Positions 5,113 through 37,725 are shown, numbered from the stretch's first letter. The stretch: 64,000 nucleotides of DNA from Polyangiales bacterium (GCA_044229975.1 JBGARZ010000017.1:96001-160000), one strand, 5' to 3'. Numbers and translations: made by a program. The notes: generated from the letters alone by a model not told the origin.

Positions 5113-5128
5113 AGCACGGGTCGTGCCG
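5113..5128 (-). promoter_or_regulatory. Candidate sigma54 -24/-12 promoter for the cNMP/DUF6544 operon
   Basis: CGGCAC-GACCC-GTGCT (GG-N10-GC), about 50 bp upstream of the ATG. Confidence 0.6.
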
Positions 5129-5171
5129 CCGCCCGACGTCCATGCGGAAGTGTCGGTGTGGTGGCGTAGCG

Positions 5172-5414
5172 TCAGCGGGTCGAGTTCGCCCCATCGAGGA
5201 ACTCACGGACGATCGGGTCGACGCTCGCCTCGATGGTCGCGACGGGGCCGATGGCGACGACCCTCCCTTCGTGAAGGAGCGCGATCCGATCGGCGACGCG
5301 GGAGGCCAGCGCGAGGTCGTGGGTGACGACGACGGAGGTGACCTTCAACTGCTCTCGCAGGGACGCGATCAGGTCGCCCAGAGGGATCGAGTGACTCCGT
5401 CGATCTGCGTGCAT
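5172..5414 (-). pseudogene. Remnant of an MlaF/Ttg2A-like ABC ATPase (C-terminal part only)
   Basis: TSVVVTHDLALASRVADRIALLHEGRVVAIG...DPIVREFLDG; Walker A, signature and Walker B are absent. Confidence 0.75.
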
Positions 5415-5503
5415 GGTTCAACCTTTCCTTCGGATGAGGGAAGAGCCGCGCGTGCCACTTCCACTTCCGGCAACCACTGCTCGAACAACCCGTCAGGTCG
5501 TCT

Positions 5504-5720
5504 GACGACGCGGCGCTGCTCCCGACGCTCGCGCCCTCGATCGGCGCGATGGCGGTGGCTGGCGTCGTCGCCGCGGCGCAGGCCTACCGACGGTCCTCCT
5601 CGCCTCCAGGTATCGTGAGCGGTTCGTCGGAGGACGCGAGCGTGCGCAACCCTTCGAGCTGCGCTCCGCGATCACCTTCGGGGTGCTCTACGGGGTGACC
5701 CTGGCGATGAAAACGAAGCC
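5504..5720 (+). pseudogene. Internal remnant of an MgtC/SapB-DUF4010 membrane protein
   Basis: ALLPTLAPSIGAMAVAGVVAAAQAYRR...VRNP(frameshift)FELRSAITFGVLYG; NPFEL..A..FG is characteristic of DUF4010. Confidence 0.6.
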
Positions 5721-5724
5721 ACCC

Positions 5725-6798
5725 TCACGCCGTGCGCTGCCGGAGCCGCGGACCGAGCGTCAGTGCCAGGATCGCCCCGGTGACGAGTGCCGCGCCCGCG
5801 ACCTCGTGCCCGTCGGGAGCGCGCTGCGACGGGAACAGAGCCGCCAGCGCGAGCGCAGCGGCGACGCCCGCGAGCACGCTCGATGCGCGGTTGACCGGCA
5901 CGGCGAAGGAGTTCTCTCGCTTGTCGAGCAGGATCAATCCGCCGAACACGCCCGTGAGCTGGGAGAGCAGCCCGACGGCTACCACCACGAGCGCCGCGGG
6001 GCCGGTTGGCACCTCCGTGAACCCGCGCTGCACGGCCTCCCCGAGAGCGCCGCGCCCAGCGATCGCGACCGCGACGAGCGCGACGAGGGCCGCCGGGCTC
6101 GCGACCATCTGCTCCTCGACGAAGAACCGCCGGTTGTCCTCGTCGGACCCCTTCGCGAGGCGGCTCATGGCGCGCAGCCGTACGAAGTAGGCTGCGAGGT
6201 ACACGGCGACGTCCACCACGGCGACGAGGGGGAGCGGCGCGCGCGCGCCCGGGGCCACCGTCGCACCGAGCGCCCCGAGGCTAAGGCCGAGCGCCACCCA
6301 CGAGAACCACCGCACCCGCCGACCGCTGACGGCGTCGACGATCGGCGCGAGGACCAGCACGCCGCCGCGCATCAGCAGCATCATGAACACGATGCTCGCC
6401 CCGCGGAACGTGTACGCCAGCGTCGTCGTGAGCATCACGGCCGCGGTGCACAGCCCCGAGAGGAGGGTCCAGCGACCCGGCCGCGGCAGGCGCACGCCCG
6501 CCACCGTCGCCTGGCCCGCCGCGCGCCACCAGCCGAGCACCGTGATCAGCGCGAACATCCCGACCGTCGACGCCGCGACGCTGATGGGCAGCAGCGAGGG
6601 GCCGTCGATCGGCCCTCCCAGTGACGGCACGAGTCCCGACGACAGCACCTTGGTCAGGGCGCTGTAGGGCACGTAGGCTGAGAAGTACCCGAAGGCGCAG
6701 AGCCAGATCGACTGCCCGCCCAGCCACTCCCGCAGGACTCCCCGATGGGAGGTCCGATGCCCTCCCGTCGTCGACGGCTCGCTAGCGGTGCGTCTCAA
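5725..6798 (-). CDS. Conserved hypothetical multi-pass membrane protein
   Basis: About 10 TM segments; YVPYSALTK, LLMRGGVL, RENSFAVPVNRASS motifs; directly downstream of ppsA; exact start uncertain. Confidence 0.7.
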   Translation of the reverse strand: MRRTASEPSTTGGHRTSHRGVLREWLGGQSIWLCAFGYFSAYVPYSALTKVLSSGLVPSLGGPIDGPSLLPISVAASTVGMFALITVLGWWRAAGQATVAGVRLPRPGRWTLLSGLCTAAVMLTTTLAYTFRGASIVFMMLLMRGGVLVLAPIVDAVSGRRVRWFSWVALGLSLGALGATVAPGARAPLPLVAVVDVAVYLAAYFVRLRAMSRLAKGSDEDNRRFFVEEQMVASPAALVALVAVAIAGRGALGEAVQRGFTEVPTGPAALVVVAVGLLSQLTGVFGGLILLDKRENSFAVPVNRASSVLAGVAAALALAALFPSQRAPDGHEVAGAALVTGAILALTLGPRLRQRTA

Positions 6799-9187
6799 CC
6801 TGGGTCTTCTCCAGTTCGAGCACGGCGAGCGTGGTCTTCACGACGCTGTCGGGGTTGAGCGAGAGCGCGTCGATGCCGAGGCGCACCAGGAGGGCCGCGA
6901 CCTCCGGGTGGTCGGACGGCGCCTGGCCGCAGATGGCCGCCGGGCGCCCGTTGCGGTGGGCGCCCGCCACCGCCTGGCGCAGCAGCTCCAGCACGCCCGG
7001 GTCGCGCTCGTCGAACTCGAAGGCCACCAGCGCCGAGTCGCGGTCGACGCCCAGGGTGAGCTGCGTGAGGTCGTTGGAGCCGATGGAGATGCCGTCGAAG
7101 AGCCGACAGAAGGCGTCGATCTGGAGGACGTTGTTGGGGATCTCGCACATCACCAGCACCTTCAGCCCGCGCTCGCCGCGCACGAGCCCGTGCTTCGCCA
7201 TCTCGGCCAGCACCCGCTCGCCCTCGGCCACGCGGCGGCAGAAGGGGACCATCAGCTCCACGTTGCTCAGGCCCATGTCCTCGCGGACCCGGCGCATCGC
7301 GCGGCACTCCAGCGCGAACGCCTCGGCGTAGCTCGGGTGCGTGTAGCGCGACGCGCCCCGCAGGCCGATCATGGGGTTCTCTTCAACGGGCTCGAAGTCG
7401 CGGCCGCCCACGAGGCTCGCGTACTCGTTGGACTTGAAGTCCGACAGGCGCACCACCACGGGCTTCGGGTAGAACGCCGCCGCGAGGGTCCCGACGCCCT
7501 GCGCGAGCTGGTCGACGAAGTACTCCGCGCGGTCGGCGTAGCCCGCCGTGAGCCGGTCGAGCTCGGCACGCGCGGCCGGGTCGGTCACCCGCTCCGGGTG
7601 CAGCAGCGCCATCGGGTGCGCCGCGATGGTGTGGCTGATGATGAACTCCAGGCGCGCCAGCCCGACGCCGTCGTTGGGCAGCGCCGCGAGCGAGAACGCG
7701 CGGCCCGGGTCGCCGACGTTCATCAGGATGCGGGTGCGCGGCCGGGGCATCGATCCGATCTCGGTGCGCTCGACGTGGTGTGCGAGGCGCCCCTTGTAGA
7801 CCCTGCCCGCGTCACCGCCGGCGCAGGAGACCGTGACGTCCGTGCCGGTGGCGAGGCGGCGCGTGGCGTCGGCCGCGCCCACCACGGCGGGGATCCCGAG
7901 CTCCCGCGCGACGATGGCCGCGTGGCAGGTGCGGCCGCCGCGCTCGGTGACGATGGCCGCGGCGCGCTTCATCACCGGCTCCCAGTCGGGCGTCGTCGTG
8001 TCGGCCACAAGCACCTCGCCGTCGCGGAAGTCCGCGAGCTGCGAGGGGTCGCGCAGCACACGCACCGGCCCCGCGCCGATGCGGTCGCCCACGCTCACAC
8101 CGCTCGCCAGCACCGGCCCGGTGCCGTCGAGGACGTACCGTTCGACGACGTCGACCCGCCCGGAAGCGCGCACCGTCTCGGGCCGGGCCTGCACCACGAA
8201 GAGCTCGCCGGTGACTCCGTCGCGAGCCCACTCGATGTCCATGGGGGTGTCGCGGCCCGCGCGCCCGGTGTAGTGGCGCTCGATCGCCACGGCGGTGCGG
8301 GCGAGGGCGAGCACCTCGTCGTCGGTGAGGCAGAAGCGGGCGCGCTCCTCGGCGGGCACGGCGAGGTTGCGCGTGGCGGGACCCGCCGGGTCGTCGCCGT
8401 ACACCATGCGCAGATGCTTGCCCCCGAGTCGCCGCCGCAGGATGGGGCGCGGCGCGGAGTCGAGGGTGGGCTTGAAGACGTAGAACTCGTCGGGATCGAC
8501 GGCGCCCTGCACGACGTTCTCGCCGAGGCCGAAGGCGGCGTTGAGGAGCACCACGTCGCGGAAGCCGGTCTCGGTGTCGAGGGTGAACATCACGCCGCTC
8601 GACCCGAGGTCGGAGCGCACCATGCGCTGCACGCCGATGGAGAGCGCGACCCGCAGGTGGTCGAAGCCCTGGTCGATGCGGTAGGCGATGGCGCGCTCGG
8701 TGAAGAGACTCGCGAAGCAGCGGCGGCAGGCCGCGCGCAGCGCATCGAGTCCGCTGACGTGGAGGAAGCTCTCCTGCTGGCCCGCGAAGGAGGCGCCGGG
8801 GAGGTCCTCCGCCGTGGCCGAGGAGCGCACCGCCACCGAGTCGGCGCCCTCGCGCGTGAGGCGCTCGTACGCGTCAACGATCTCCGCCCAGAGGTCCGCG
8901 GGGAGCTCGGCCGACTCGATGAGCGCGCGGGCGGCCGTGGCGCGGCGCGCGAGGTCGGCGGTGTTGTTCTTGTCGACGCCGGCCATCAGGTCGGACAGCG
9001 GGGCGCGCAGCTTCGCATCGTCGAGTACGCGCCAGTAGGCCTCGGCCGTGACCGCGAAGCCGGGTGGAACCTTCACGCCGAGCGGACGGAGCGAGCGCCA
9101 CAGCTCGCCGAGCGACGCGTTCTTGCCGCCGACGAGCGGAAGGTCGGCGAGGGTGAGCTCTTCGAAGCGGCGGATGTAGCGGTCCAT
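6782..9187 (-). CDS. ppsA: Phosphoenolpyruvate synthase
   Basis: VGGKNASLGE, AVRSSATAEDLP.ASFAGQQ, DIEWA, GGRTCHAAI (phospho-His), SIGSNDLTQ, ICGQAPSD. Confidence 0.95.
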   Translation of the reverse strand: MDRYIRRFEELTLADLPLVGGKNASLGELWRSLRPLGVKVPPGFAVTAEAYWRVLDDAKLRAPLSDLMAGVDKNNTADLARRATAARALIESAELPADLWAEIVDAYERLTREGADSVAVRSSATAEDLPGASFAGQQESFLHVSGLDALRAACRRCFASLFTERAIAYRIDQGFDHLRVALSIGVQRMVRSDLGSSGVMFTLDTETGFRDVVLLNAAFGLGENVVQGAVDPDEFYVFKPTLDSAPRPILRRRLGGKHLRMVYGDDPAGPATRNLAVPAEERARFCLTDDEVLALARTAVAIERHYTGRAGRDTPMDIEWARDGVTGELFVVQARPETVRASGRVDVVERYVLDGTGPVLASGVSVGDRIGAGPVRVLRDPSQLADFRDGEVLVADTTTPDWEPVMKRAAAIVTERGGRTCHAAIVARELGIPAVVGAADATRRLATGTDVTVSCAGGDAGRVYKGRLAHHVERTEIGSMPRPRTRILMNVGDPGRAFSLAALPNDGVGLARLEFIISHTIAAHPMALLHPERVTDPAARAELDRLTAGYADRAEYFVDQLAQGVGTLAAAFYPKPVVVRLSDFKSNEYASLVGGRDFEPVEENPMIGLRGASRYTHPSYAEAFALECRAMRRVREDMGLSNVELMVPFCRRVAEGERVLAEMAKHGLVRGERGLKVLVMCEIPNNVLQIDAFCRLFDGISIGSNDLTQLTLGVDRDSALVAFEFDERDPGVLELLRQAVAGAHRNGRPAAICGQAPSDHPEVAALLVRLGIDALSLNPDSVVKTTLAVLELEKTQVETHR

Positions 9188-9200: not shown

Positions 9201-9216
9201 TGCACCGCACGCGCCA
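9201..9216 (-). promoter_or_regulatory. Candidate sigma54 promoter for ppsA
   Basis: TGGCGC-GTGCG-GTGCA (GG-N10-GC). Confidence 0.5.
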
Positions 9217-9259: not shown

Positions 9260-9274
9260 GCGCAGCTTCTGCGC
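9260..9274. promoter_or_regulatory. Palindromic candidate enhancer (UAS) GCGCA-N5-TGCGC
   Basis: GGCGCAGCTTCTGCGCC between divergent sigma54-like promoters; the motif recurs at 23230, 26016, 27339, 32129, 32150 and 37603. Confidence 0.5.
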
Positions 9275-9348
9275 CTCCCGGGCAAACCGTTCGCCGACCG
9301 TACGATCGACGATGGGTAGTCGACGGCGGCGACGGGGCCGCCTCGTGG

Positions 9349-9364
9349 CGGCACATGCCGTGCT
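9349..9364 (+). promoter_or_regulatory. Candidate sigma54 promoter for the BON-USP operon
   Basis: CGGCAC-ATGCC-GTGCT. Confidence 0.6.
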
Positions 9365-9404
9365 CATGCACCCACGTACGAGGACGATGATGGAGACCCA
9401 CGGG

Positions 9405-10061
9405 ATGAGGACGGACGGCCAGATCCAGGCAGACGTGATGAGTGAGCTCGCGGCCGACACGAGGGTCCGCGCGACGGACATCGGGGTGACGGTGGAGGGC
9501 GGCGTGGTGACGCTGATCGGCGCGGTCGACTACTGGGCGCGGCGGCACGCGGCGCAGCAGGCGGCGCACCGGGTCGCGGGGGTGAGGGACGTCGCCAACG
9601 ACATCCAGGTGCGGGTGCCGGGCTCCCTCCAGCGCACCGACGCGGACATCGCCAGGGCGGTGCGCCGCGCGTTGGAGTGGGACGCCCGGGTGCCCGACGA
9701 GCGTATCCGCTGCACGGTGTCCAACGGCGACGTCTGTCTGGAGGGGGCCGTGGAGTACTGGAGCCAGCGCGAGGACACCGAGGACGCCGTGCGCAACCTC
9801 GCGGGCGTGAGGAGCGTGAACAACGCACTCGCGATCGACCCCCCGAGCGTTACGCCGGAGGAGGTCCGCCGCGCCATCGCCGACGCCCTGGAGCGTCGCG
9901 TGAGCCGCGAAGGCGAGGGCGTCGAGATCACCCTCGAGAACGGTCGCGTCACGCTCGCCGGGGTCGTTCGCACCTGGGACGAGCGCGCGGCGGTCCTGGG
10001 CGCGGCGGGCGCGCTGCCGGGCGTCCGCGGCGTCACCGATCGCCTTCGCCTCGCACGCTGA
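9405..10061 (+). CDS. Triple BON-domain protein (OsmY-like, no signal peptide)
   Basis: Three repeats of D..I...V...L / V.V..G.VTL.G.V / GVR.V.N.I.V; GGAG RBS before ATG 9405. Confidence 0.9.
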   Translation: MRTDGQIQADVMSELAADTRVRATDIGVTVEGGVVTLIGAVDYWARRHAAQQAAHRVAGVRDVANDIQVRVPGSLQRTDADIARAVRRALEWDARVPDERIRCTVSNGDVCLEGAVEYWSQREDTEDAVRNLAGVRSVNNALAIDPPSVTPEEVRRAIADALERRVSREGEGVEITLENGRVTLAGVVRTWDERAAVLGAAGALPGVRGVTDRLRLAR

Positions 10062-10076
10062 ACCAAAGGAGACACC

Positions 10077-10508
10077 ATGATCGAACCATTCAAGAAGGTC
10101 CTCGTCGGGACCGATTTCAGCGAGGCGGCGGGTCGGGCCGTGGAGCGCGCGGTGGACGTCGCCGCCCGCTACGGCGCAAAGCTTCACCTTGTTCACGCGT
10201 GGGACTACCCCGCCGTCGCCTACGCCGCGATGGGCACCACGATGATCGACATCCTGCCCTTCGAGCAGGCGGCGCGGGAGAAGCTCGACGCGCTCGTGGC
10301 CTCCCTCGCGGACCGCGGCGTCACCGTTGAAGCAAGCCTCTGCCGCGGCGTCGCGTGGGACCAGATCGTCTCACTCGTCGATCAGGTCGCGGCCGACCTT
10401 CTGGTGGTCGGCACGCACGGCCGCACCGGCCTCAAGCGCGCGATGCTCGGCAGCGTGGCCGAGCGGGTGGTGCGTCACGCGACGGTGCCTGTGCTCACGG
10501 TGCACTGA
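10077..10508 (+). CDS. Universal stress protein
   Basis: KKVLVGTDFS...DLLVVGTHGRTG...LGSVAERVVRHA.VPVL. Confidence 0.95.
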   Translation: MIEPFKKVLVGTDFSEAAGRAVERAVDVAARYGAKLHLVHAWDYPAVAYAAMGTTMIDILPFEQAAREKLDALVASLADRGVTVEASLCRGVAWDQIVSLVDQVAADLLVVGTHGRTGLKRAMLGSVAERVVRHATVPVLTVH

Positions 10509-15085: not shown

Positions 15086-15101
15086 AGCGAGGCGCATGCC
15101 G
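15086..15101 (-). promoter_or_regulatory. Candidate sigma54 promoter for the pdo-rhodanese-tauE/yeeE operon
   Basis: CGGCAT-GCGCC-TCGCT. Confidence 0.6.
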
Positions 15102-26507: not shown

Positions 26508-26548
26508 AGCGCCCGGACACGCCAGGCCGACGTGCCTGGCGGGGCCCG

Positions 26549-27220: not shown

Positions 27221-27272
27221 GGCGTTCCTCGATGATCCGCCTGCGACGGGAGGGGCGGGCGGTGATGCTCTC

Positions 27273-27520
27273 AGCACCCGCTGTGCCGCGCGCCGAGGAT
27301 GCGAAGTTCGGGGCGCGAGCGAGCTTCGTGCGCAGGTCGCGCAGCGATTGCGCCGACCCGTGCGCTTGATGCGCCCGCGTGTCGGCGACCACTGTCCTGG
27401 GGCCGAAGCAACGTGTGCTCACGAGGGCATGGCTTGTGTCGCGCGCAAGGCTGCGTGCACCCGGCGACATCCAGTTTGGGAGGAGACGGTCGGTCCTGCC
27501 CGCGCGGCACACCCTCTGCT
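27273..27520. promoter_or_regulatory. Divergent sigma54 promoter pair with tandem UAS
   Basis: Minus strand CGGCAC-AGCGG-GTGCT (27273-27288); TGCGC-AGGTC-GCGCA-GCGAT-TGCGC (27329-27353); plus strand CGGCAC-ACCCT-CTGCT (27505-27520). Confidence 0.6.
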
Positions 27521-27531
27521 GTGACGCTCGC

Positions 27532-28573
27532 ATGAAGAGAGTGCGCGATGTCGGGACGGTGGCCCAGTGGATGACATCCCAGGAGGAGACGGTCGGACGC
27601 CGCACGTCGCTGGCCGTCGCGCGCATCGCGATGGCACGCACACGGCTCGAACACCTGCCGGTGATGCACGAGGGCTCCCTCGTCGGCGTGCGCACCGCGA
27701 GCGACCTCGCGCGCCTGGAGACGCTCGGCGTGGCGCCCGATCGGTCTGCGGCGGAGGCGATGCGCACCGACGTCTTCGCCGTGGGGGCCGAAGAGCCCGT
27801 CGCGCGCGCCGTCGCGCCCATGGCCGCGGGTGGGGGCGGCCTCGCGGTGGTGATGCGCGACGGTCACGTCGTCGGAGTGTTCTCCGCGGCCAACGCGCTG
27901 CGCTCCGCTGGGGGCGATCTGCGGGCCGCTGACGAACCCACGGTGCCGGAGCTCGCGGCGCGGGCCCGGGCGGCCCGGGGGCTATGCGCTCGCCGTCATC
28001 GCCGGCTCCGCGGGGGCCATCCGTCCGCTGGTGCGGACCCTGGGCGCGCTGCCGCGGACCTTTCCGTTGGCGGTCGTCGTGGTGCAACACCGGGCGTCGC
28101 GCCCGCACGACCTGCTCGCGCAGCTGCTGCGCCGGACGGGATCGCTGCCGATCGTCGAGGTCGTCGACGGGGCACAGCTCACGCCGGGTACCGTGCACCT
28201 GGCCCCGCCGGACCTCCACGTCGAGACCGGCCCCGGCGGAGTCCTCGAACTCCACGACGGGCATCGCATCGCGGGCGTGCTCTCGTCGGCGGACCCGCTG
28301 CTCGAGAGCGCGGCCCGCGAACTCGGTCCGCGGGTGATCGCGGTGATCCTCTCGGGGAGGGGATCCGACGGCGCCTTCGGCGTGCGCGCCGTCGGCAAGG
28401 CCGGCGGCACCGTACTCACTCAATCGACCGGCAGCGCGGACTTCGACGGGATGCCCGCGTCGGCGCTCGCCACTGGCTGCGTGGACCTGTCGCTCGGCGT
28501 AGACGCGATCGGGCCGGCGCTCGTGCGACTCGCGCGCGAGGCTCGTCCCGTCGACGCTCTCGCGGATAAGTGA
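27532..28573 (+). pseudogene. CBS-pair + CheB methylesterase fusion, frameshifted at a G run (27977-27981)
   Basis: CBS motifs (WMT...HLPVM..G.LVGV); after a 1-nt shift, YALAVIAGSAGAI...VVQHR...ILSGRGSDGA...MP.SA (S-H-D triad). Confidence 0.75.
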
Positions 28574-28581
28574 CCGCGCGG

Positions 28582-30627
28582 TCACTCGTGCCGGAGGGCG
28601 TCGATCGGGTTGAGCCGCGCCGCGTCGCGCGCGGGGACGAAGCCGAAGACCACACCGACGCCGCACGAGACGAGCATCGCGAGGAGTGCCGTGTCGGTCT
28701 GGAACTGGAGGCTGAAGTCCGTCACCCGCGAGAGCACGAAGCTCGCCCCCACGCCCAGGAGCAGACCCGCGAGGCCTCCGACGCCGGACAGCACCACGGC
28801 CTCGACGAGGAACTGCGCCAGGATGTCCCGCGGGCGCGCCCCGATCGCGAGGCGGATGCCGATCTCGCGCGTCCGCTCGGTGACCGAGACCAGCATGATG
28901 TTCATGACGCCGATGCCGCCCACCAGGAGCGAGATGGAGGCGACGGTGAGCAGCAGCACGCTGATGATCGACTGCTGCGCCTGGAACGAGTTCATGATCT
29001 CGGTGAGGTTGCGCACCGAGAAGTCGTCCTCCTGGCCGGCGTCGATCCGGTGCCGCTGCCGGAGAAGCGCCGTCACCCCGTCCTGGGCGCGGAACACCAG
29101 GTCGGGCCCGCGCGCCGTCACCATGACGGCGTTCACCTGCCCGTTGGGGAGGCGGAAGATCCCGGCGCGGAAGGCGCTGATGGGGACGACCACGGTGTCG
29201 TCCTGGTCCTGGCCGAAGCCGGTCTGGCCGCGCGGGGCGAGCACCGCCACGACGGTGCACGGCATTCGCCCGACGCGCACCTCGCGCCCGGTGGGGTCGT
29301 CCGCGCCGAAGAGCTGGCGGCGCACCGTCTCCCCCAGGACGCACGACCGGGCCGACAGCCGGACCTCGTCGTCGCCCCAGAGCGCACCGAGCGCGGCGTC
29401 CCAGGTCCGCACCGCGAAGTACCCGGGCGTCGTGCCCGTCACCCGCGTCGACCAGTTGAGCTCCCCCGCGACGACCTGCGCGCTCGCGCCGAGGACGGGC
29501 GCGACCGCCGCGACGGACGGCACCTCCCGGCCGATGGCGACGGCGTCCTCGTCGGTGAGGGTGGCAGCGGCGCCCCGCGCTCCGCGCGCGCCGCCGCTGA
29601 CGGTGGGGTTCGGCACGACGACCAGGAGGTTGACCCCGAGCGACGCGAGCTGCGCCGCCATCCGCTGGCGCGCCCCCGCGCCGAGGGCGCTGGTGGTCAC
29701 CACCGCCGCGATGCCGATGAGGATCCCGAGCGCCGTGAGCGAGGTGCGCAGCTTCGCCCGCGAGAGCGCCCGCAACGCGAGCCAGAGCGCGGTCAGCCCC
29801 CGCCACGCGGCGCCCGCCGCGCGTCGCATCGCGCCCCGCGGGGACGTCCCGGCGCCGGCCCCGCGGAGGTCCTCCCGCTGCCACGGCATCACGGCGTCGG
29901 CGGGGGTCGCGATCCGCGGCCGGGTCGCGCGCTCGTCGGACACCACGCGACCGTCGCGCATGCTGATCACCCGCGAGGCGCAGGCCGCGACGTCCGCCTC
30001 GTGGGTGACCATCACGATGGTGAGGCCGTGCTCGCGGTTGAGCCACTGGAGCAGCGCCAGGATCTCCTCGGAGGTCTTCGAGTCGAGGTTGCCGGTGGGC
30101 TCGTCGGCCAGCAGCAGGGCGCGCACCGTCACGAGCGCGCGGGCCGTGGCGACGCGCTGCTGCTGGCCCCCCGAGAGCTGCGCCGCCGTGTGCTTCATGT
30201 GCGCGCCGAGCCCCACCAGCGCGAGGGCGTACCTGCACCGCCGCGCGCGCTCGGCCGCGGGCGTGCCCTGGTGGACCAGCGGCATCTCGACGTTCTCGAG
30301 GGCGCTGGTGCGGGGCAGGAGGTTGAAGCCCTGGAAGATGAACCCCAGGAGCCGGTTGCGCGCCCGCGCGAGCTCGTCGGTCCCGAGGGCCGAGACGTCG
30401 CGCCCGTCGAGGACGAATCGCCCGCTCGTGGGCCGGTCGAGGCACCCGATGACGTTCATGAGGGTGCTCTTGCCCGAGCCCGACGGGCCGACGATCGCCA
30501 CGAACTCGCCGCGCTCGACCCGCAGCGTGGCCCCCTCCAGTGCGACGAAGGTCACCCCGCCGGTGCCGTAGACCTTCCGCACGTTCTCCAGCGAGAGCAT
30601 CGGGGTGGCGGCGAGCGCGCCCTCCAT
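28582..30627 (-). CDS. MacB-type ABC transporter (ATPase-permease fusion)
   Basis: GPSGSGKST, LSGGQQQRV, ADEPTGNLD; RTSLTALGILIG; GGIGVMNIMLVSVTERTREIGIR.AIGA; ends LNPIDALRHE; TGATG coupling to the upstream adaptor. Confidence 0.92.
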   Translation of the reverse strand: MEGALAATPMLSLENVRKVYGTGGVTFVALEGATLRVERGEFVAIVGPSGSGKSTLMNVIGCLDRPTSGRFVLDGRDVSALGTDELARARNRLLGFIFQGFNLLPRTSALENVEMPLVHQGTPAAERARRCRYALALVGLGAHMKHTAAQLSGGQQQRVATARALVTVRALLLADEPTGNLDSKTSEEILALLQWLNREHGLTIVMVTHEADVAACASRVISMRDGRVVSDERATRPRIATPADAVMPWQREDLRGAGAGTSPRGAMRRAAGAAWRGLTALWLALRALSRAKLRTSLTALGILIGIAAVVTTSALGAGARQRMAAQLASLGVNLLVVVPNPTVSGGARGARGAAATLTDEDAVAIGREVPSVAAVAPVLGASAQVVAGELNWSTRVTGTTPGYFAVRTWDAALGALWGDDEVRLSARSCVLGETVRRQLFGADDPTGREVRVGRMPCTVVAVLAPRGQTGFGQDQDDTVVVPISAFRAGIFRLPNGQVNAVMVTARGPDLVFRAQDGVTALLRQRHRIDAGQEDDFSVRNLTEIMNSFQAQQSIISVLLLTVASISLLVGGIGVMNIMLVSVTERTREIGIRLAIGARPRDILAQFLVEAVVLSGVGGLAGLLLGVGASFVLSRVTDFSLQFQTDTALLAMLVSCGVGVVFGFVPARDAARLNPIDALRHE

Positions 30628-31901
30628 CAGAACATCCTCATGCGCGCGCCGCCGGTGCTCCTCGCGCCCGCGGCGTCGGTGTCGTCGAGCACCACCTCCT
30701 CGCCGACCCGCAGGCCCGCGCCAGAGACCTCCGTGGCGACGCCGTTGGTGACGCCCACCGCTACCGGCACGGCGACCGCGCGCCCGCCGCGCAGGACGTA
30801 GACCACGCCCGCGCCCGGCGGCGGCTCGACGGACGGTCGCCGGGCCTCGGCGGCGGGCGGCCAGTACCGGAGGGCCGCGTTGGGGACGCAGAGCGCACCG
30901 GGCCGGCGCTGCGTGACGATGGTGATGGTGGCCGTCATCCCCGGGCGCAGCTTGAGCTCCGGGTTGGCGAGCGCGATCACCGTCGCGTATGTCACCACGC
31001 CGCTCGTGGACGTCGGGGTGATGCGGAGCTGCGAGACCTCGCCGCGGAACGTCTCGCGCGGGAACGCGTCGACCCGCGCGACGGCGCCCATGCCCTCGCG
31101 CGGGCGGCCGATGTTGGCCTCGTCGACGTCGGCCATCACCCGCATCTGCGCGAGGTCGTTGGCGATGACGAAGAGCGTGGGCGTCTGGAAGCTCGCGGCG
31201 ACCGTCTGTCCGGGGTCGACCGCGCGCGTCGCGACGACACCGTCGATGGGCGCCTCGATGCGCGTGAACGCGAGGCTGGTCCGCGCCGAACGGAGCGACG
31301 CCCGGGCCTGGGCGACCTGCGCGGTCGCGAGGTTCACCGAGGCCTCGGCCATCTCGCGCTGGGCGGCGGCCTGGTCGACGTCGGCCTGCGCGTTGAGCCC
31401 GCCGGACCGCAGCGCGACGGCGCGCGCGAGCACCCGCTCGGTCAGGCGGTGGTTGGCGCGGTTCTGCGCGAGCGTCGCCTACGCGGCCTGGAGCGAGGCG
31501 GCCGCCTGCTCGACCTGCGCGCGGTAGGTGGTCGCGTCGATCTCCGCCAGCAGGTCGCCGCGGCGGACGCGGCTGTTGAAGTCCACCGCCACGCGCAGGA
31601 TGCGGCCGCTCACCTGGGCGCCGACCTGCACCTCGACGAGCGGCTGCACGGTGCCCGTCGCGCGGATGACCTCCTCGAGGTCGGTACGGGCGACGCGCGC
31701 GGTCAGGTGTCGTGAGGTCACGGGTCGGGGGCGGGCGCGCCACCACGCGAAGGCCCCGGCGGCGAGGGCGAGGAGCGCGAGCGCGAGCGCCAGCCACCGA
31801 AGCCAGCGGCGGTTGGAACGTCCCGCCGGGTCGGTCGCGTCCGAGGGCCCGACGACGACGGCCGGAGGGTCGGCGGCGCCGACGCTTGTTGACGGGGTCA
31901 T
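30627..31901 (-). pseudogene. MacA-like periplasmic adaptor with an in-frame TAG at 31479-31481
   Basis: TM, ATGTVQP...VGAQVSG.I....VDFN, LQAA*ATLAQ, APIDGVV...GQTVAASFQTPTLF, LRPGMTA. Confidence 0.85.
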
Positions 31902-32018
31902 CGCGGGTCACCGGCGGCGGTCGCCGCGGTGCGGTGTCTCGGTGGGGTGGAACCCGGGCGTGGATCACGACGTGTCATGGTGGCCTCGCGGCGCTTCGCC
32001 GCCGGAGACCGCCTCGTT

Positions 32019-32237
32019 CGCACGTGCCGTGCCCGGTGCCGCGGGCTCGCGTCGGTGCGCCGCGCGACGAACCTCCGCCGCCCCGACGGGCGCAGGCGCC
32101 GCGCGACGAACCTCCGCCGCCCCGACGGGCGCAGGCGGTTCGCCGCCTCGTGCAGATGCTGCGCGAGCGGTCACGGACGGGGGTAGGGAGCCGTGCGAGT
32201 CCGATCGTCCGCGCGCCCGATCGGTACATGCCGTGCA
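32019..32237. promoter_or_regulatory. Divergent sigma54 promoter candidates with UAS-like sites
   Basis: Minus strand GGGCAC-GGCAC-GTGCG (32019-32034); GCGCA-GGCGG-TTCGC (32129) and GTGCA-GATGC-TGCGC (32150); plus strand CGGTAC-ATGCC-GTGCA (32222-32237). Confidence 0.5.
32057..32137. repeat. Perfect 39-bp tandem duplication
   Basis: GCGCCGCGCGACGAACCTCCGCCGCCCCGACGGGCGCAG x2 (32057-32095, 32096-32134) plus GCG. Confidence 0.9.
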
Positions 32238-32324
32238 GCCCGGCTGGCGCATGACACCTCCCGCGCTGCTCGGACGTCTCGCTCGCCTCTTCGCGCCCAC
32301 CGCCTTCGCGCTCCTGGTCGCGCT

Positions 32325-33113
32325 GTGAGGGGCCGCGTCCCGCTCGATCACTTCGACGCCGCGCGGAAGGACGCCGTCGGCGTCGGCGATCCGGGGAGGT
32401 CCGAGCGATTCTGGTCGCTCGCCGGTCGCGCGACGGACCTCGTCGGAGCGACCCTCCGCGGGGTCGAGCACCTCCCCGCGGGCCGCGGACTGCTCGTGGC
32501 CAACCACGCCTTCGGATGGGACGCCGCGCTCGCCATCGCCCTGTTGCGGCGCGCGACGGGTCGGCGCGTCTGGGTCCTCGGCGAGCACCTGTGGTGGCGC
32601 GTGCCGTTCCTGCGCGGCCTCGCCGCCGACGCGGGCGTGGTCGACGGGACGCCCGCGAACGTCGACCGTCTCCTCGGCCGCGACGAGCTCGTGCTGGTCA
32701 TGCCGGGTGGATTGCGCGAGGCGTTGAAGCCGCGCGAGCTCCGCTACCGCCTGCTGTGGTCGGGGCGCTACGGCTTCGTGCGCGCGGCCGTCCGCAACCG
32801 GGCGCCGCTGATCCCGCTCGCGACGTTCGGCGCGGACGAGTGGTTCGACTGGGTCGGTGACCCCTACGATCGGGGTCGGCGCTGGCTCGGACCGCTCGGC
32901 CTCCACCTGCCGCTCCCGCGCCCGTGGGCCGGCCTCCCGTGGCTCCACCGGGTGCGACCCGAGTACATCCTCGGCGAGCCGGTGGTGCCGCCCGAGGCGG
33001 CGAGCGAGCACGACCTCACGGCGCTGCGCCGCCTGCGCCGGGAGATCGAGGGCGCGCTGCACGAGCTCATCGAGGAGGAGCTCGCCCGGCGCGCCGGCTT
33101 CGCCACGAAGTGA
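32325..33113 (+). CDS. Lysophospholipid/PlsC-DAGAT family acyltransferase
   Basis: GVEHLP...LLVANHAFGWD (HX4D), LVMPGGLRE, GFVRAA...PLIP; the true start may be ATG 32251 with a frameshift. Confidence 0.8.
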   Translation: MRGRVPLDHFDAARKDAVGVGDPGRSERFWSLAGRATDLVGATLRGVEHLPAGRGLLVANHAFGWDAALAIALLRRATGRRVWVLGEHLWWRVPFLRGLAADAGVVDGTPANVDRLLGRDELVLVMPGGLREALKPRELRYRLLWSGRYGFVRAAVRNRAPLIPLATFGADEWFDWVGDPYDRGRRWLGPLGLHLPLPRPWAGLPWLHRVRPEYILGEPVVPPEAASEHDLTALRRLRREIEGALHELIEEELARRAGFATK

Positions 33114-33116
33114 CGC

Positions 33117-33554
33117 TCAGTGGATCGTCAGCACGGCGACGGGCGACATCCGCACGACCCGCTCGGCGACGCTCCCCATCATCACCCGGCGGATGCCCGT
33201 CCGGCCGTGGGTTCCGACCACGATGAGGTCGGCGCCCTGCGCCTCGGCGTCGGCGAGGATGCGCTCCCATGGCGATCCAGTGGTCAGCGTCGAGGTGACG
33301 GACAGCTTGCTCGTGCGCAGGCCGGACACCAGTTCGTCGAGCTCCGCCCGCGCGGACGCCTCGATGAGCGTGCTCCAGTCCACGGACGGCTCCATGCTCG
33401 CGCCGCGCGCGAGGAGCGGCATGTCCCAGACGTGCACCACGTGCAGCGACGCCTCGTACCGCTGCGCGAGGTCGATGGCGCGCTCCAACGCGCGGTGCGC
33501 GTGGTCGCTGAAGTCCGTGGCAACGAGCACCTTCTCGAACGGCTTGATCATCAT
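33117..33554 (-). CDS. Universal stress protein (paralog of 10077..10508)
   Basis: KVLVATDFS...DLIVVGTHGRTG...GSVAERVVR. Confidence 0.93.
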   Translation of the reverse strand: MMIKPFEKVLVATDFSDHAHRALERAIDLAQRYEASLHVVHVWDMPLLARGASMEPSVDWSTLIEASARAELDELVSGLRTSKLSVTSTLTTGSPWERILADAEAQGADLIVVGTHGRTGIRRVMMGSVAERVVRMSPVAVLTIH

Positions 33555-33651
33555 TTCTTCCTGCGTCTCTGGCGTCTCGACTCCGCGCGCACGGGTGCCG
33601 GCCTTCCCCGTCCGCGAACCTCCATCCCTGGCGACGTCCCGGCGGTGGCCG

Positions 33652-34401
33652 TCAGAAGCGGAGGCCGAGCTGGAGGTGGGGATGGAACATGAACGCGATC
33701 GCGTCGCCGTCCTCGCGAAGCTCCATGCAGTGAGGGTCGTCGGAGGCGCAGTCGGGGTACTCAACGGCCGCCCGGTGCACCGCAGCGACCGCGAAGTCGG
33801 CGTCGAGGCCGACGAACCACCCGCGGTAGATCGGCACGTCGACGCCGAGGCCCCCGTGGGCGGCCCATCCGTGGGCGGTCACACGCGGCGAGCTCGTCGT
33901 CGCGCCGCCCGCGAAGCCGGTCAGGTAGAGGTGCCCGGCCCCCACGCGCAGCGCGAGCTCGACCCGTCCCAGGGGCAATCGAAACGCACCTTCGAGCGTC
34001 GTCCCCACCGTCTGGAAGGTCACGGCGGCGGTGTTGCCGGGGGAGGGAGCGAGCGCCACCCCGTCGCCGCCGAAGAACGAGGCGTGGACCTGCAAGGCGA
34101 GGCTGAAGCGCAGGTCGTGCACGCCCGCGGTCAGGCCGAAGCCCGGTCCCCAGCCCGTGAAGGTCGCGACGTTGGGAAACACGGTCGCAGAGCCCTGCAC
34201 GGAGACCAGCGCGAGGTACGAGGCGCCCCCTTCGACCTCGACGAAAAACGGGCGCCTGGGGCGCGGGGAGGCAGTGTCCGAGACGGCGGCCGTGTGGTCT
34301 CCGAGGATGGGCTGCGACGCGGCGGTGGACGGCGCAACGAGCCCCACCAGCAGGAAGAGGCCCGTCGCGAGTCCCCGTCGCCGAACGGCGTCGATCATCA
34401 T
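33652..34401 (-). CDS. Putative outer-membrane beta-barrel protein
   Basis: Signal-peptide-like N-terminus, alternating beta strands, C-terminal LQLGLRF; sigma54-like GGGAAC-GAGCG-TTGCA at 34414-34429. Confidence 0.55.
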   Translation of the reverse strand: MMIDAVRRRGLATGLFLLVGLVAPSTAASQPILGDHTAAVSDTASPRPRRPFFVEVEGGASYLALVSVQGSATVFPNVATFTGWGPGFGLTAGVHDLRFSLALQVHASFFGGDGVALAPSPGNTAAVTFQTVGTTLEGAFRLPLGRVELALRVGAGHLYLTGFAGGATTSSPRVTAHGWAAHGGLGVDVPIYRGWFVGLDADFAVAAVHRAAVEYPDCASDDPHCMELREDGDAIAFMFHPHLQLGLRF

Positions 34402-34436
34402 GGGAGGAGCATGTGCAACGCTCGTTCCCAGTGTGG

Positions 34437-34871
34437 TCAACGCGAGGAGGTCGCGCCGGTCGCGTCGCCGCGGGCCAGGTCGTCGGGCACGAGTGCCACC
34501 GTAATCTCGGGCGAGGACGCGACCGTGCGCTTGACCTTGCAGTTGCCGACCGCGCGCAGCATCGCCGCCCTGTGGCTCTCCGGGAACCCCTGCGGCAAGC
34601 GCAGGTCGAGCACGATCCGCGTGGGGATCCCGGCGCCGTCGGCGTCGTAGCGCAGCGAGAGCCCGAGGTCCTCGGTGGGCAGGTTTCGGCCCTGGCAGAA
34701 GGCGAGTGCGTAGTAGCCCGCGCACGTTGCGACGGACGCGAGGAAGAGCTCGAAGGGGCCCGGCGCGCTGCCGGCGCCGCCGACCTCGGCGGGCTGATCG
34801 GTGCGCACCGTGAAGCCGCCCACCGAGGCGTCGACTCGCTTGCCGCCGGGAAACGAAACGTCGATCTGCAT
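34437..34871 (-). CDS. OsmC family protein
   Basis: VSFPGGKRVDA...TDQP...GSAPGPFELFLAS.ATCAG...C.VKR; sigma54-like CGGCCC-GCGGG-TTGCT at 34942-34957. Confidence 0.85.
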   Translation of the reverse strand: MQIDVSFPGGKRVDASVGGFTVRTDQPAEVGGAGSAPGPFELFLASVATCAGYYALAFCQGRNLPTEDLGLSLRYDADGAGIPTRIVLDLRLPQGFPESHRAAMLRAVGNCKVKRTVASSPEITVALVPDDLARGDATGATSSR

Positions 34872-35143
34872 GGCCTTGTCACCTTTCCATCGGGGCACGC
34901 GCGCAACGCGCGAGGTCGCCACTGCGACGCTTCCGAGATCGAGCAACCCGCGGGCCGCGGCGACGCTCGACGCGATCGAGGAGGAAGGGTCGCGCCGACT
35001 TGACCACCGCGTTGCTCGGGTAGGTCGAGGGGCACCCCGACCCGGCGAAGCGTGGCCGTTGCCGCCTCCACACGAGGGGCGCAGCGCGTGCACGCACCGC
35101 GAACGCCCTGCGCGGCGCGGTCGTTGCTGAAGCGGTCGCCCCG

Positions 35144-36238
35144 ATGTCCCCCAACGAGCCCGCCGGGCCTCCATCAGACGTCGTCGACCCGAGCGCTTCC
35201 ACGGCCGCCGTCGCGACCCCGGACCAGCAGAAGGCGCTCGCCGTGCTGACCGCCACCCTGGCCCTGCTCGCGCTCGCGGCGGTGCACCCGCTGGTCGCGC
35301 CGCTCGTCGTGGGTGCGTGGTTCGCCGGGCTCGCGTCCCCCTGGATCACACGGCTGTCCCAGCGCTTCGGGCACCGCCGCCGCCTCGCGGGCCTTGCGAC
35401 ACTGGTGCTCGTCGTGGCCCTGCTCGCGCCAATCTTCCTCCTGGTGGCGCCGCTCACGTCGCTCGCGGGCGACGCCGTGGCCACCCTCAAGCGCGCGGCC
35501 TCGACCGGCACGCTCGGCCATTGGATCGGCGCCGGCCCGGGCCCGGTCGGGGCGCACGACCTCTCGCATCGCTTCTGGGGAGCAGCGCGCGACCTCGCGC
35601 CGGGCGCCACGGGCCTCGCGTCGCGGGCCCTCACGGTCGTCTCCACCGGCGTGGTCCAGGCGCTGGCGCTGGTCGCCTCGGCGTACGTGTTCTCCGCGGA
35701 GGGCGCCGAGATCCTCACGGTGGCGCGCCACGGCTCGCCCCTGGCGCCGCAGCACTTCGACCGGCTGCTGGCCGAGTCCCTGCGCGTCGCCCGCGCCCTC
35801 CTCGTGGGCGGCCTGCTTACTGCCCTCGCGCAGGGCGTCGTAGCCTTCGCGGTCTACCTCGCGCTCGGCATCGCGAACGCGGCCGGGCTCGCAGCGCTCA
35901 CGGCGCTCGCGTCCGTCGTTCCCGCCGTCGGCAGCTCGCTGGTGTGGCTGCCACTCTGCGCGCTGCTGGTGGGCGTCGGCCGACACCGCGAGGCGCTCGT
36001 CCTCGCGGCGTGCGGCGTGGTCCTCATCGGTACCGTCGACAACGTGCTGCGGCCGATGCTCGCGCGCCTCGGAGCCCACGACGTCCATCCGTTGCTCCTG
36101 TTCGTCGGCGTGGTCGGTGGCATCGGCTCGCTTGGCCCCTGGGGCCTCGTGCTCGGCCCCCTCGCGCTCTCGCTCTTCGTCGGCGCCTACCGCATCCGGG
36201 CCGAGTCGGTCGCCGGACCCGGGGCGCCCACCACGTAG
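35144..36238 (+). CDS. AI-2E family transporter
   Basis: TALAQG, VPAVGSSLVWLP, VDNVLRP, HPLLLFVGVVGG...G.WGLVLGP; sigma54-like CGGCGC-GGTCG-TTGCT at 35113-35128. Confidence 0.85.
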   Translation: MSPNEPAGPPSDVVDPSASTAAVATPDQQKALAVLTATLALLALAAVHPLVAPLVVGAWFAGLASPWITRLSQRFGHRRRLAGLATLVLVVALLAPIFLLVAPLTSLAGDAVATLKRAASTGTLGHWIGAGPGPVGAHDLSHRFWGAARDLAPGATGLASRALTVVSTGVVQALALVASAYVFSAEGAEILTVARHGSPLAPQHFDRLLAESLRVARALLVGGLLTALAQGVVAFAVYLALGIANAAGLAALTALASVVPAVGSSLVWLPLCALLVGVGRHREALVLAACGVVLIGTVDNVLRPMLARLGAHDVHPLLLFVGVVGGIGSLGPWGLVLGPLALSLFVGAYRIRAESVAGPGAPTT

Positions 36239-37524
36239 TGCCGCGTGGCGCAAACCTCCCGGGCGAGCTCGGCGCGGAAGTCGGGGTGCGCGATCGAGAC
36301 CAGCGCCTCAGCCCGCTCCCGGAGCGTCCGGCCGTGGAGGTTCACCGCACCGTACTCGGTGACGATCCAGTGGACGTGCCCGCGCGTCGTCACCACCCCG
36401 GCGCCGGGGCGGAGCGCCGAGACGATGCGCGAGACGGTCCCGTGCGCGGCCGTGGAGGGCAGCGCGAGGATCGGCTTGCCGCCGCGGGAGAGCGCGGCGC
36501 CGCGGATGAAGTCCATCTGGCCGCCGATGCCCGAGTAGATGCGGTGGCCGATAGAGTCGGCGCAGACCTGCCCCGTGAGGTCGACCTCCAGGGCGGAGTT
36601 GATGGCCACGACGCGGTCGTTGCGCCCGATGAGCGAGGCGTCGTTGGTGCGGTCGCAGGGGTGAAACTCCACCAGCGGGTTGTCGTCCACGAAGTCGTAG
36701 AGCGCGCGGGACCCGTGGACGAAGCTGGTGACCGTGCGGCCCGGGTGGACGGCCTTGCGCCGGTTGGTCACCACGCCGCCCTCAATCAGAGGGATCAGCC
36801 CGTCGGAGAACATCTCCGTGTGCACGCCGAGGTCGCGCTTGTCGCCCAGCCGCGCGAGCACCGCGTCGGGGATCGCGCCGATGCCCATCTGCAGCGTGGA
36901 GCCGTCCTCCACGAGCCCCGCGATGAGCTCGCCGATGCGCCGTTCGGCCTCGGTCTCGGCGGCCGGAGCGCGCTCGGGGAGGGGGCGCGAGGTCGACACC
37001 CAAGCGTCGAAGCGCGCAAGGGGCACCGCGGTATTGCCGTGCGTGCGGGGCATGCGCTCGTTGACCTCGGCGATGACGAGGCGGGCCGAGTCGACCGCCG
37101 CGCGGGCCGCGTCGACCGAGGTCCCGAGCGAGCAGAGCCCGTGGGCGTCGGGGGCGGACACCTGCACCAGCGCGACGTCGAGCGGGACCACGCCCGACGT
37201 GAAGAGCCCGGGGACGTCGGCGAGGAACACCGGGATGTAGTCCGCCTCTCCCTCCGCGACCGCGTCGCGCAGCCCGTCCCCGACGAACAGCGACACCGAG
37301 CGGAAGCGACCGGCGAGCGCCGGCTCCGTGAAGGGGAAGCGCCCCGTGGTGTGCAGGTGGTAGAGCCGCACGCCGTCGAGGTCGTCGCGCGCGGCCAGCG
37401 CTTCGAGGAGGCCAGTGGGCGTGGCCGCGGCGCCGTGCACGAAGACGCGGGCGCCCGAGGGGATCCGTCGCACCGCGTCGGCGGCCGATCGGCACAGGGA
37501 GCGAAAGGGAGGTTGCATGGGCAT
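36187..37524 (-). CDS. Acetyl-CoA hydrolase/4-hydroxybutyrate CoA-transferase family
   Basis: DGSTLQMGIGAIPDAV, LGVHTEMFSDG (catalytic Glu), SGIGGQMDF, VTEYG, IAHPDFR; sigma54-like CGGCAC-GGCGA-TGGCT at 37533-37548. Confidence 0.92.
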   Translation of the reverse strand: MPMQPPFRSLCRSAADAVRRIPSGARVFVHGAAATPTGLLEALAARDDLDGVRLYHLHTTGRFPFTEPALAGRFRSVSLFVGDGLRDAVAEGEADYIPVFLADVPGLFTSGVVPLDVALVQVSAPDAHGLCSLGTSVDAARAAVDSARLVIAEVNERMPRTHGNTAVPLARFDAWVSTSRPLPERAPAAETEAERRIGELIAGLVEDGSTLQMGIGAIPDAVLARLGDKRDLGVHTEMFSDGLIPLIEGGVVTNRRKAVHPGRTVTSFVHGSRALYDFVDDNPLVEFHPCDRTNDASLIGRNDRVVAINSALEVDLTGQVCADSIGHRIYSGIGGQMDFIRGAALSRGGKPILALPSTAAHGTVSRIVSALRPGAGVVTTRGHVHWIVTEYGAVNLHGRTLRERAEALVSIAHPDFRAELAREVCATRHYVVGAPGPATDSARMR

Positions 37525-37725
37525 CGGGAGGTAGCCATCGCCGTGCCGATCCCATCGACGCCTGCGAATAGCGGACCCGCGAGCGCAGAAGGTGCACCCG
37601 CTGCGCAGGTGATTCGCGCGGGACGGAACGGCGAGGGCGCAACCGCACCGTCACCGTCGGCAGGAACTTGACGCGTCGGCGCGTTCTCGTTTGCGGAACG
37701 GATCGTGAATTCCGTCGGCCTCACC

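Follow-up and report, generated by a model that had tools for sequence, protein, structure and literature searches.

The stretch analysed here, called the window, is a 64,000-nucleotide piece of a Polyangiales genome (contig C17, positions 96001-160000 of the source genome G000, which has 10.0 Mb, 71% GC, and 39 contigs). It holds the right half of a gene cluster of ~85 kb with genes for a cbb3 oxidase and for Acg, Usp, CBS, and BON proteins. The cluster carries predicted sigma54 promoters and a recurrent palindrome that occurs as paired boxes, and it is treated here as a putative low-oxygen regulon of the activator NmpR. Gene calls were made with a custom dicodon model, which missed some genes, and were annotated with Pfam, NCBIfam, and PADLOC. 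The marker-gene contamination estimate for the genome is 3%, and some contamination is possible.

Fourteen box pairs were found in C17:50-134 kb. They precede phosphoketolase, CBS genes, a CBS-SDR-globin kinase unit, a hemerythrin of the iron-sulfur repair type, hemerythrin-Usp, and the ccoI-cbb3 oxidase; they also precede the Acg region, phosphoenolpyruvate (PEP) synthase, BON, Usp, type III SQR-DsrC-DsrE2, LonC, MacAB, OsmC, and acetyl-CoA hydrolase. The Acg gene, assigned to its family by NF047509 (above cut-off), lies mostly upstream of the window, and its 3' end reaches window position 164. The predicted targets within the window are the PEP synthase (6782..9187, minus strand), a BON-domain protein with a Usp (9390..10508, plus strand), a type III SQR-DsrC/TusE-DsrE2 operon (21069..23146, minus strand), a LonC-like protease (23445..25946, minus strand), a group of Usp, BON (minus strand), and CBS (plus strand) genes (26107..27981), and a longer group with macB/macA-like, acyltransferase, Usp, osmC, AI-2E transporter, and acetyl-CoA hydrolase/transferase genes (28582..37524). 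Apparent lesions affect four window genes. In-frame stops interrupt lonC (at 24180) and macA (at 31479), the Usp at 26107-26507 is apparently frameshifted, and an activator gene is left as a remnant. These lesions reflect decay or assembly error. The lonC-like and macA-like paralogues elsewhere are intact.

Paired palindromes and sigma54 promoters

An earlier interpretation made from the DNA alone (the sequence-only reading) had listed the palindrome G(C/T)GCA-N5-T(G/T)CGC at 9260, 23230, 26016, 27339, 32129, 32150, and 37603, and all seven were found at exactly these positions. For enrichment, the 26 intergenic segments of window 1-38460 (4,937 bp) were compared with 1,000 dinucleotide shuffles. 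The palindrome occurred 11 times vs 0.12 in the shuffles, the published strict NmpR consensus 3 times vs 0.04, and paired boxes 7 times vs 0.0; in each case 0/1,000 shuffles reached the observed count. Per 10 kb of intergenic DNA there are 19 palindromes in window 1-38000, none in 38001-64000, and 0.29 elsewhere in the genome. The coding DNA of window 1-38000 has 1.2 per 10 kb. The signal ends at ~38 kb, and it extends upstream of the window, where the 46 kb of C17:50-96 kb contain 6 intergenic matches vs 0.2 expected.

Motifs of this kind might be chance products of DNA with 72% GC. One-mismatch single boxes are indeed frequent in coding DNA genome-wide (2,272 anchors), and window genes themselves contain two perfect boxes (1701 and 28118). 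However, a chance origin is ruled out by the shuffles, by the pairing, which is restricted to 20-21 bp in intergenic DNA, and by the recurrence of the pattern outside the window; the probability left for it is negligible.

Every window palindrome is one half of a tandem pair, with a start-to-start distance of 20-21 bp (gaps of 5-6 nucleotides) at 7/7 loci. This pairing had been overlooked in the sequence-only reading, as had the pair at 35079/35099. Five of the seven pairs lie between divergent promoters, in agreement with the placement proposed there. These are the pairs at 9260-9274 and 9280-9294 (9260..9294, 20 bp, pair score 26.6) between ppsA and BON-Usp; at 26016 and 26036 (26016..26050, 20 bp, score 22.4) between the lonC-like gene and Usp; at 27339 and 27360 (27339..27374, 21 bp, score 22.2) between BON and CBS, with a weaker third box at 27319; at 32129 and 32150 (32129..32164, 21 bp, score 29.7) between the macAB-like genes and the acyltransferase; and at 35079 and 35099 (35079..35113, 20 bp, score 28.8) between osmC and the AI-2E transporter. 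The other two lie upstream of sqr-dsrC-dsrE2 (23230 and 23251; 23230..23265, 21 bp, score 28.2) and of the acetyl-CoA hydrolase/transferase (37583 and 37603; 37583..37617, 20 bp, score 23.7). For 25 intergenic anchors of C17:50-134 kb, 20 partners were counted at 20 or 21 bp and 0 at 29-30 bp. A matrix trained on 10 pairs, all outside the window, places 7/7 window pairs within the genome-wide top 26. Genome-wide, 29 pairs score at least 21. The 24 intergenic ones among them all belong to the clusters on C17, C1/C3, and C15, which are those holding nmpR or the globin kinase.

All 17 of the GG-N10-GC elements described earlier are present, and each points into a co-oriented open reading frame (ORF). 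They were scored with a sigma54 matrix built from 54 intergenic sites that lie on other contigs. Of the elements, 6 score at p<1e-5, 5 at 1e-5 to 1e-4, and 6 more weakly (15086, 19725, 25959, 32019, 32222, and 34414). The matrix matched the intergenic segments 11 times vs 0.94 in the shuffles (0/1,000 reached 11), and 10/11 matches face the adjacent gene. A sigma54 pattern mis-spaced by one base, an unplanned negative control, has 0 intergenic matches in the cluster. The genome encodes one rpoN. A co-oriented -24/-12 element lies within 500 bp of 7/7 window pairs and of 25/27 pairs examined genome-wide, and the pairs are mostly placed 30-70 bp upstream of these elements. Measured from the proximal box, the -24 GG lies at distances that cluster near 31, 41, 51, and 62 bp. 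They show a phasing of ~10.3 bp (Rayleigh p 6e-4 at 10.2-10.4 bp for 32/36 distances, with 8, 97, 130, and 139 dropped); this p carries no correction for the period scan, and the sample includes paralogous promoters, which are not independent.

A box pair lies within 260 bp of 12/17 elements. On the minus strand these are 9201..9216 (ppsA), 23162..23177 (sqr-dsrC-dsrE2), 25959..25974 (weak; lonC-like), 27273..27288 (BON), 32019..32034 (weak, GG..GC read by eye; macA-like), 34942..34957 (osmC, pair ~130 bp off), and 37533..37548 (acetyl-CoA hydrolase/transferase). On the plus strand they are 9349..9364 (BON-Usp), 26073..26088 (Usp), 27505..27520 (CBS gene from 27532, pair ~140 bp off), 32222..32237 (weak; acyltransferase), and a sigma54-like element at 35113..35128 (AI-2E transporter). 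The last abuts the proximal box, and activation from that box is therefore doubtful. The five elements without a pair at this distance are 5113..5128 (minus, strong; tandem protein binding cyclic nucleotides, cNMP), 15086..15101 (minus, weak; persulfide-dioxygenase-like/rhodanese/TauE operon), 19576..19591 (minus; second sulfur-dioxygenase-like gene), 19725..19740 (plus, weak; small Cys-rich ORF), and 34414..34429 (minus, weak and sigma54-like; between osmC and a 249-aa ORF). A further sigma54-like element was noted at 1562 for a membrane-type ORF (351-1148, minus strand) that has no Pfam or NCBIfam match; a similar unannotated ORF lies at L008:13995-14858 (minus strand).

NmpR as the candidate activator

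Tandem GCGCA-N5-TGCGC boxes are bound by NmpR of Myxococcus xanthus, an NtrC-like sigma54 activator, according to electrophoretic mobility shift assays (EMSA) and reporters (PMC11841059). The palindrome fits this box with at most two deviations and is enriched upstream of genes. In sequence it is the already known, EMSA-tested NmpR box, and not a new motif. The headline of the sequence-only reading is a rediscovery, because motif and activator are known from one species. In M. xanthus, NmpR acts on genes for CBS, Usp, ccoI-cbb3 oxidase, and hemN-hemerythrin, as well as on pilR and nmp genes, and hypoxia induced one of the reporters (PMC11841059). Box pairs here precede several of the same targets, namely CBS divergent from nmpR, ccoI-cbb3, Usp, and hemerythrin. 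The box is thus very probably an NmpR site, and the genes behind it a low-oxygen regulon. The idea of a sigma54 enhancer regulon of low-oxygen or dormancy-type genes is supported by the published box and the shared targets, whereas one activator for all ~15 units is not.

The best matches of M. xanthus NmpR in the source genome are C17:66357-67709 and C3:14737-16104 (55%), followed by C32:1014196 (53%). The C17 orthologue lies ~29 kb upstream of the window, and the C3 copy is near-identical to it. Twelve named Myxococcales loci were obtained via a published primer. In reverse searches from the candidates, NmpR was the first match in 3/3 Myxococcales genomes. The recognition helix reads SIRTIQYRL or SPRKIQYKL in the three proteins vs SVRKIQYRL in M. 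xanthus NmpR, and such a helix is confined to these three among the best 30 of 57 own activators and 11 references. In a quick tree for which 6 other own activators served as outgroups, the three and NmpR form one clade (SH-aLRT, the Shimodaira-Hasegawa-like approximate likelihood ratio test, 98), with the C17 and C3 proteins as sisters. In this genome the clade has two near-identical nmpR copies and a third member on C32, which also tells against a single activator. The window itself holds an NmpR-clade remnant with the 5' receiver only (37705..38175, end approximate, plus strand), which is full length in the congeners G001 and G004.

A stressosome (globin-STAS RsbR, RsbS, RsbT, and RsbX) with a divergent GAF kinase adjoins nmpR in both copies of the source genome and in G040 and G259. 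Its genes lie at C17:62349-66349 (L007:4349-8349) and C3:16116-20101, and also in L039 and L079; in G040 no globin-PAS kinase was found. The stressosome may be a second oxygen input to NmpR.

Two proteins encoded in the window among the motif-bearing promoters might bind the palindrome in place of NmpR, a PAS-sigma54 activator (17191-18540) and a tandem cNMP-domain protein (3835-5064). However, the cNMP protein has no DNA-binding domain by Pfam. The PAS activator differs in recognition helix and clade, its paralogues on C31 and C32 accompany a sulfur module at which no pair scores at least 21, and the promoters flanking it carry TGAAAC/GTTTCA repeats. The helix, the clade, and these repeats rule out the PAS activator as the binder, and a local binder of either kind is very improbable.

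The PAS activator gene (17191..18540, minus strand) belongs to a TauE-rhodanese-sulfur dioxygenase module at window 12722-19998, which is flanked by the promoters at 15086, 19576, and 19725. Besides the activator with its different recognition helix, the module encodes TauE, rhodanese, two sulfur-dioxygenase-like proteins, DUF302, Lgt, and Dps. The TGAAAC/GTTTCA repeats lie near 15190 and 19650, and three paralogous copies of the module are present in the genome (window, C31, and C32). It is likely that the PAS activator regulates this neighbouring module and not the palindrome. FisR-type sulfide-oxidation modules are sigma54-controlled. They share with this one a sigma54 activator beside persulfide-dioxygenase-like, rhodanese, and TauE genes, a likeness of gene context that concerns only the sub-module without NmpR boxes; no passage on a FisR operator was found in PMC7315123. 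The small Cys-rich ORF downstream of a sigma54-like element (19818-19998, plus strand) has CxxC-type motifs. A single activator working through the motif, as first proposed, fits the 12/17 promoters with a box pair. For the whole set it is too strong, because 5/17 sites have no pair and 3 of these lie in a module with its own activator.

The spacing of the boxes differs between lineages. M. xanthus NmpR prefers a gap of 14-15 nucleotides (29-30 bp start to start), and the pilR promoter has a gap of 5 nucleotides (PMC11841059). In the Myxococcales (3 genomes), 16/30 distinct matches were spaced 29-31 bp and 4 were spaced 19-21 bp. In the order of the source, which includes the Sorangium and Polyangium homologues, 12/23 were spaced 19-21 bp and 1/23 was spaced 29-31 bp (5 genomes), and 15/19 pairs from 20 further loci were spaced 19-20 bp. 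The box-pair spacing is lineage-specific. Across the lineage the enhancer spacing has shifted by one helical turn, and the recognition helix has hardly changed. Pairs of 20-21 bp were also counted against a reversed-pattern control. The counts were 19 vs 4 in the source genome, 5-9 vs 1-4 in G001-G005, and 0 vs 4 in G008, which has no nmpR. The excess is thus clear in part of the genus, G006 and G007 not included. Outside the genus the control is too noisy, and there the count supports no correlation across genomes.

A globin-PAS kinase beside nmpR

The source genome encodes three globin-PAS-kinases. Their globin matches AfGcHK of Anaeromyxobacter sp. Fw109-5 (PDB 5OHE) with an E value of 8e-42. 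The distal Tyr46 and the proximal His99 are invariant in 29/29 aligned homologues, and the PAS domain has no invariant His. AfGcHK has the equivalent proximal His99 and distal Tyr45; it is active when O2-bound, inactive in the deoxy state, and feeds NmpT/NmpS-type receivers, as described in PMC8697598. The present kinase differs from AfGcHK by an additional PAS domain, an NmpS-type transmitter, and a sign predicted to be opposite. In the kinase core, identity is 41-43% with NmpS and 29-34% with NmpU, and the first helix is common with NmpS. In a quick tree with long branches, the globin-PAS kinase groups with NmpS (SH-aLRT 93). Its placement in one clade with NmpU is rejected (p-AU, from the approximately unbiased test, 0.034), the group for this test having been named after the tree had been seen.

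The full-length form was found in 57/250 other genomes of the order (one of them, G125, unpublished). The kinase gene adjoins nmpR in 13/14 close relatives (the exception is G005) and in 19/20 hand-picked loci across the order, 18 of them on the same strand. Sorangium, Polyangium, and further Myxococcota have named full-length homologues, from which the source was provisionally placed as a Polyangiales-type myxobacterium, and the cultured Sorangium and Polyangium make tests feasible. In the open-access literature, judged mostly by titles and the starts of abstracts, no globin-PAS kinase paired with NmpR and no short box spacing was found. The homologue survey of PMC6211767 (Fig. S2) mentions divergent domain architectures, which may bear on the novelty of this kinase form.

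In the M. xanthus relay, NmpU is active with O2 and phosphorylates the inverter NmpS; NmpR receives its phosphate from NmpS alone and not from NmpU (PMC6211767). The nmpU-nmpT-nmpS trio (globin kinase, double receiver, and inverter kinase with a receiver) is absent at both nmpR loci of the source genome, and the best NmpT matches in this genome cover one receiver only. The NmpS-type transmitter and the encoding next to nmpR across the order suggest that NmpR would be a direct substrate of the kinase, and that the kinase would be active in the absence of O2. A one-step system for a low-oxygen regulon would require a kinase that is ON in the deoxy state or a phosphatase that is ON with O2. A one-step system from globin kinase to NmpR appears to be the simplest reading, and a direct kinase that is ON in the deoxy state is somewhat favoured. 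Homologous globin sensors of predicted opposite sign would offer a direct handle on the coupling between haem state and kinase output.

The canonical logic might nevertheless persist. NmpR would then bind the boxes, and the globin-PAS kinase would be ON in oxygen like AfGcHK, acting via an inverter or a sink and not directly on NmpR. Candidates for this role are an NmpS-like REC-PAS kinase on C34, stand-alone receivers, and the globin stressosome with its GAF kinase. The haem residues of AfGcHK are kept in the globin, the C34 kinase is present, single-receiver genes often stand 3' of nmpR, and the stressosome with the GAF kinase flanks nmpR twice in the source genome and also in G040 and G259. 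However, the transmitter is NmpS-like and not NmpU-like, and adjacency of kinase and nmpR is the rule across the order. Moreover, G008, in which both globin kinase and nmpR are missing, also has a matching PAS-kinase (38-44% identical to the globin kinase) that may be a counterpart of the C34 kinase. Such an indirect arrangement is unlikely, with perhaps half the weight given to a direct kinase. The NmpS-like gene on C34 is preceded by a globin-less NmpU-like kinase core (C34:189439-193113), and this pair is possibly a relic of the canonical relay.

Taken together, the analyses suggest a clustered sigma54 regulon that would be switched on at low oxygen by an NmpR orthologue, to which we assign a probability of about 0.8. 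In the proposed mechanism, the deoxy haem-globin-PAS kinase with its NmpS-type transmitter would phosphorylate NmpR directly, and in O2 it would probably dephosphorylate NmpR. This sign would be opposite to that of AfGcHK and NmpU, which need NmpS as an inverter. Two adjacent NmpR dimers would bind a box pair on one helix face, form oligomers upon phosphorylation, and thereby open the sigma54 complex. The output would be the genes for cbb3 oxidase, hemerythrin, Acg, Usp, CBS, BON, PEP synthase, SQR, Lon, and OsmC.

Several observations speak against this proposal. The hemN gene, an M. xanthus target, is not among the annotated genes of the cluster, and no genome-wide hemN search was made. Orthology of NmpR is many-to-one, since C32:1014196 scores nearly equal and is the top match for 3/5 queries. 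Five sigma54 elements (5113, 15086, 19576, 19725, and 34414) have no box pair. The preferred M. xanthus gap of 14-15 nucleotides is not matched by the 20-21 bp found here, though M. xanthus pilR has the short gap. In the nmpR-positive genomes G006, G007, G016, G017, G022, G024, and G034, pairs of 20-21 bp do not exceed the reversed-pattern control. In the source genome the globin kinase is divergent from nmpR and not directly upstream of it, and an NmpS-like REC-PAS kinase is encoded elsewhere, at C34:191545.

The regulon appears to work like the NmpR regulon and to be controlled by an orthologue of NmpR, and it would fall outside the NmpRSTU relay as defined. As described in PMC11841059 and PMC6211767, the M. 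xanthus system has the same tandem boxes upstream of sigma54 promoters, an orthologous REC-AAA-HTH activator, a CBS gene divergent from or near nmpR, the ccoI-cbb3, Usp, and hemerythrin targets, and a globin sensor. The pairs are mostly spaced 29-31 bp there and 19-21 bp here, and a globin-PAS-NmpS-type kinase stands beside nmpR in place of nmpU-nmpT-nmpS. Seven promoters are published there vs ~25 box pairs here. The targets here are physically clustered and duplicated, and Acg, BON, PEP synthase, SQR-DsrC-DsrE2, Lon, OsmC, and MacAB are added as predicted targets.

The mycobacterial DosR (DevR) regulon has haem-based control by O2 sensors and Acg-family, Usp, and CBS targets in common with this cluster. 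DosR, a regulator of the LuxR type, recognises another box and works together with a factor of the sigma70 type. The regulator here would be a sigma54 enhancer-binding protein of the NtrC type, as judged from the motif and the linked regulator. The likeness to a DosR-type dormancy regulon, which had been raised from the gene set, holds for the output and not for membership. The link of Usp to the DosR regulon is discussed in PMC11841059. The predicted hypoxia regulon would be much larger than that known from myxobacteria, and it would converge on the mycobacterial DosR output.

Duplication and the tRNA-Phe site

A reshuffled second copy of the regulon, with ~68-86% nucleotide identity, runs from the last part of C1 into the first part of C3; in the contig-end comparison these two contigs share a 100-base overlap. 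At the right end of the C17 cluster, an attachment-site-like (att) copy of the 3' half of tRNA-Phe(GAA) lies at 38463..38513 (plus strand). It starts at the anticodon loop and shares 48/51 bases with the tRNA-Phe of C8; ARAGORN found no intact tRNA in the window. The copy is followed by a C-terminal remnant of a tyrosine integrase (38636..38720, minus strand), and intact frames of the same family follow the tRNA on C8 and the att copy on C18. Tandem integrative elements insert at tRNA 3' ends by tyrosine integrase. The C8, C18, and window sites resemble such elements in that their tRNA-Phe 3' copies start at the anticodon loop, with an intact or remnant integrase after each copy. They differ in that the left end here is unassembled and no conjugation genes are among the annotated genes. 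Contig-end overlaps do not join C17 to C8 or C18.

The sequence-only reading had called the programme mobile. The tRNA-Phe 3' copy at the cluster end and the other locations of the locus in congeners support this in part, whereas the left boundary off the contig, the host-like composition, and the nmpR tree speak against it. On balance, the C17 regulon would be carried on an element integrated at tRNA-Phe. It was probably captured or relocated on such an element, and it is not shown moving between distant taxa. Alternatively, the cluster might not be element cargo. It would then be a natively clustered, internally duplicated regulon that came to lie beside an old attachment site via rearrangement, a possibility only a little short of even. 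By tetranucleotide percentiles the regulon part (C17 50-134 kb) is host-like (0.33-0.89), and the left 40 kb of C17 are atypical (0.87-0.93). The nmpR tree broadly tracks taxonomy, the two copies in the source genome being sisters. No regulon genes occur in the 4 stretches around tRNA-Phe att sites of congeners, and the left att of the regulon segment is not on C17. However, a 46-51-bp tRNA-Phe 3' copy ~290 bp past a truncated activator gene at the cluster edge is not what native clustering would suggest. The left 50 kb of C17 contain IS21, a serine recombinase-ParB-RepB module, and PD-Lambda-1 and IetAS-like defence genes, and two genes of this part have homologues left of a tRNA-Phe att in G002. 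The neighbours of the core nmp locus also differ among G001, G002-G004, and the source genome.

A broader picture combines these points, and it is offered tentatively, as somewhat less probable than its opposite. The Nmp relay may have collapsed in this order, with the NmpU globin, a PAS domain, and an NmpS-type kinase in one protein that would be OFF in O2 and ON in hypoxia. This protein would drive a DosR-like dormancy regulon via NmpR boxes spaced by two helical turns, with the globin stressosome as the second input, and the whole might form a movable, self-contained tRNA-Phe cassette.

Some further features were observed in and beside the cluster. At C17:71607-78380 (L007-L008) there are genes for MobA, a SLAC1 channel, and a molybdopterin oxidoreductase that has Fe-S and Rieske subunits; the nmp locus of G003 also has a molybdopterin oxidoreductase block, which is missing from the nmp loci of G002 and G004. 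Three ORFs of the cluster have no Pfam or NCBIfam match (5725-6672, 11248-12705, and 33652-34401), and the last two have homologues in the loci of congeners. Past the att copy, where boxes are absent, three type II/IV secretion ATPase genes lie amid kinase and GGDEF genes (window 44063-54878). A c-di-GMP-I riboswitch (Rfam RF01051, 55 bits) lies at 39686-39762 on the minus strand, directly upstream of an unannotated 197-aa ORF (39093-39686).

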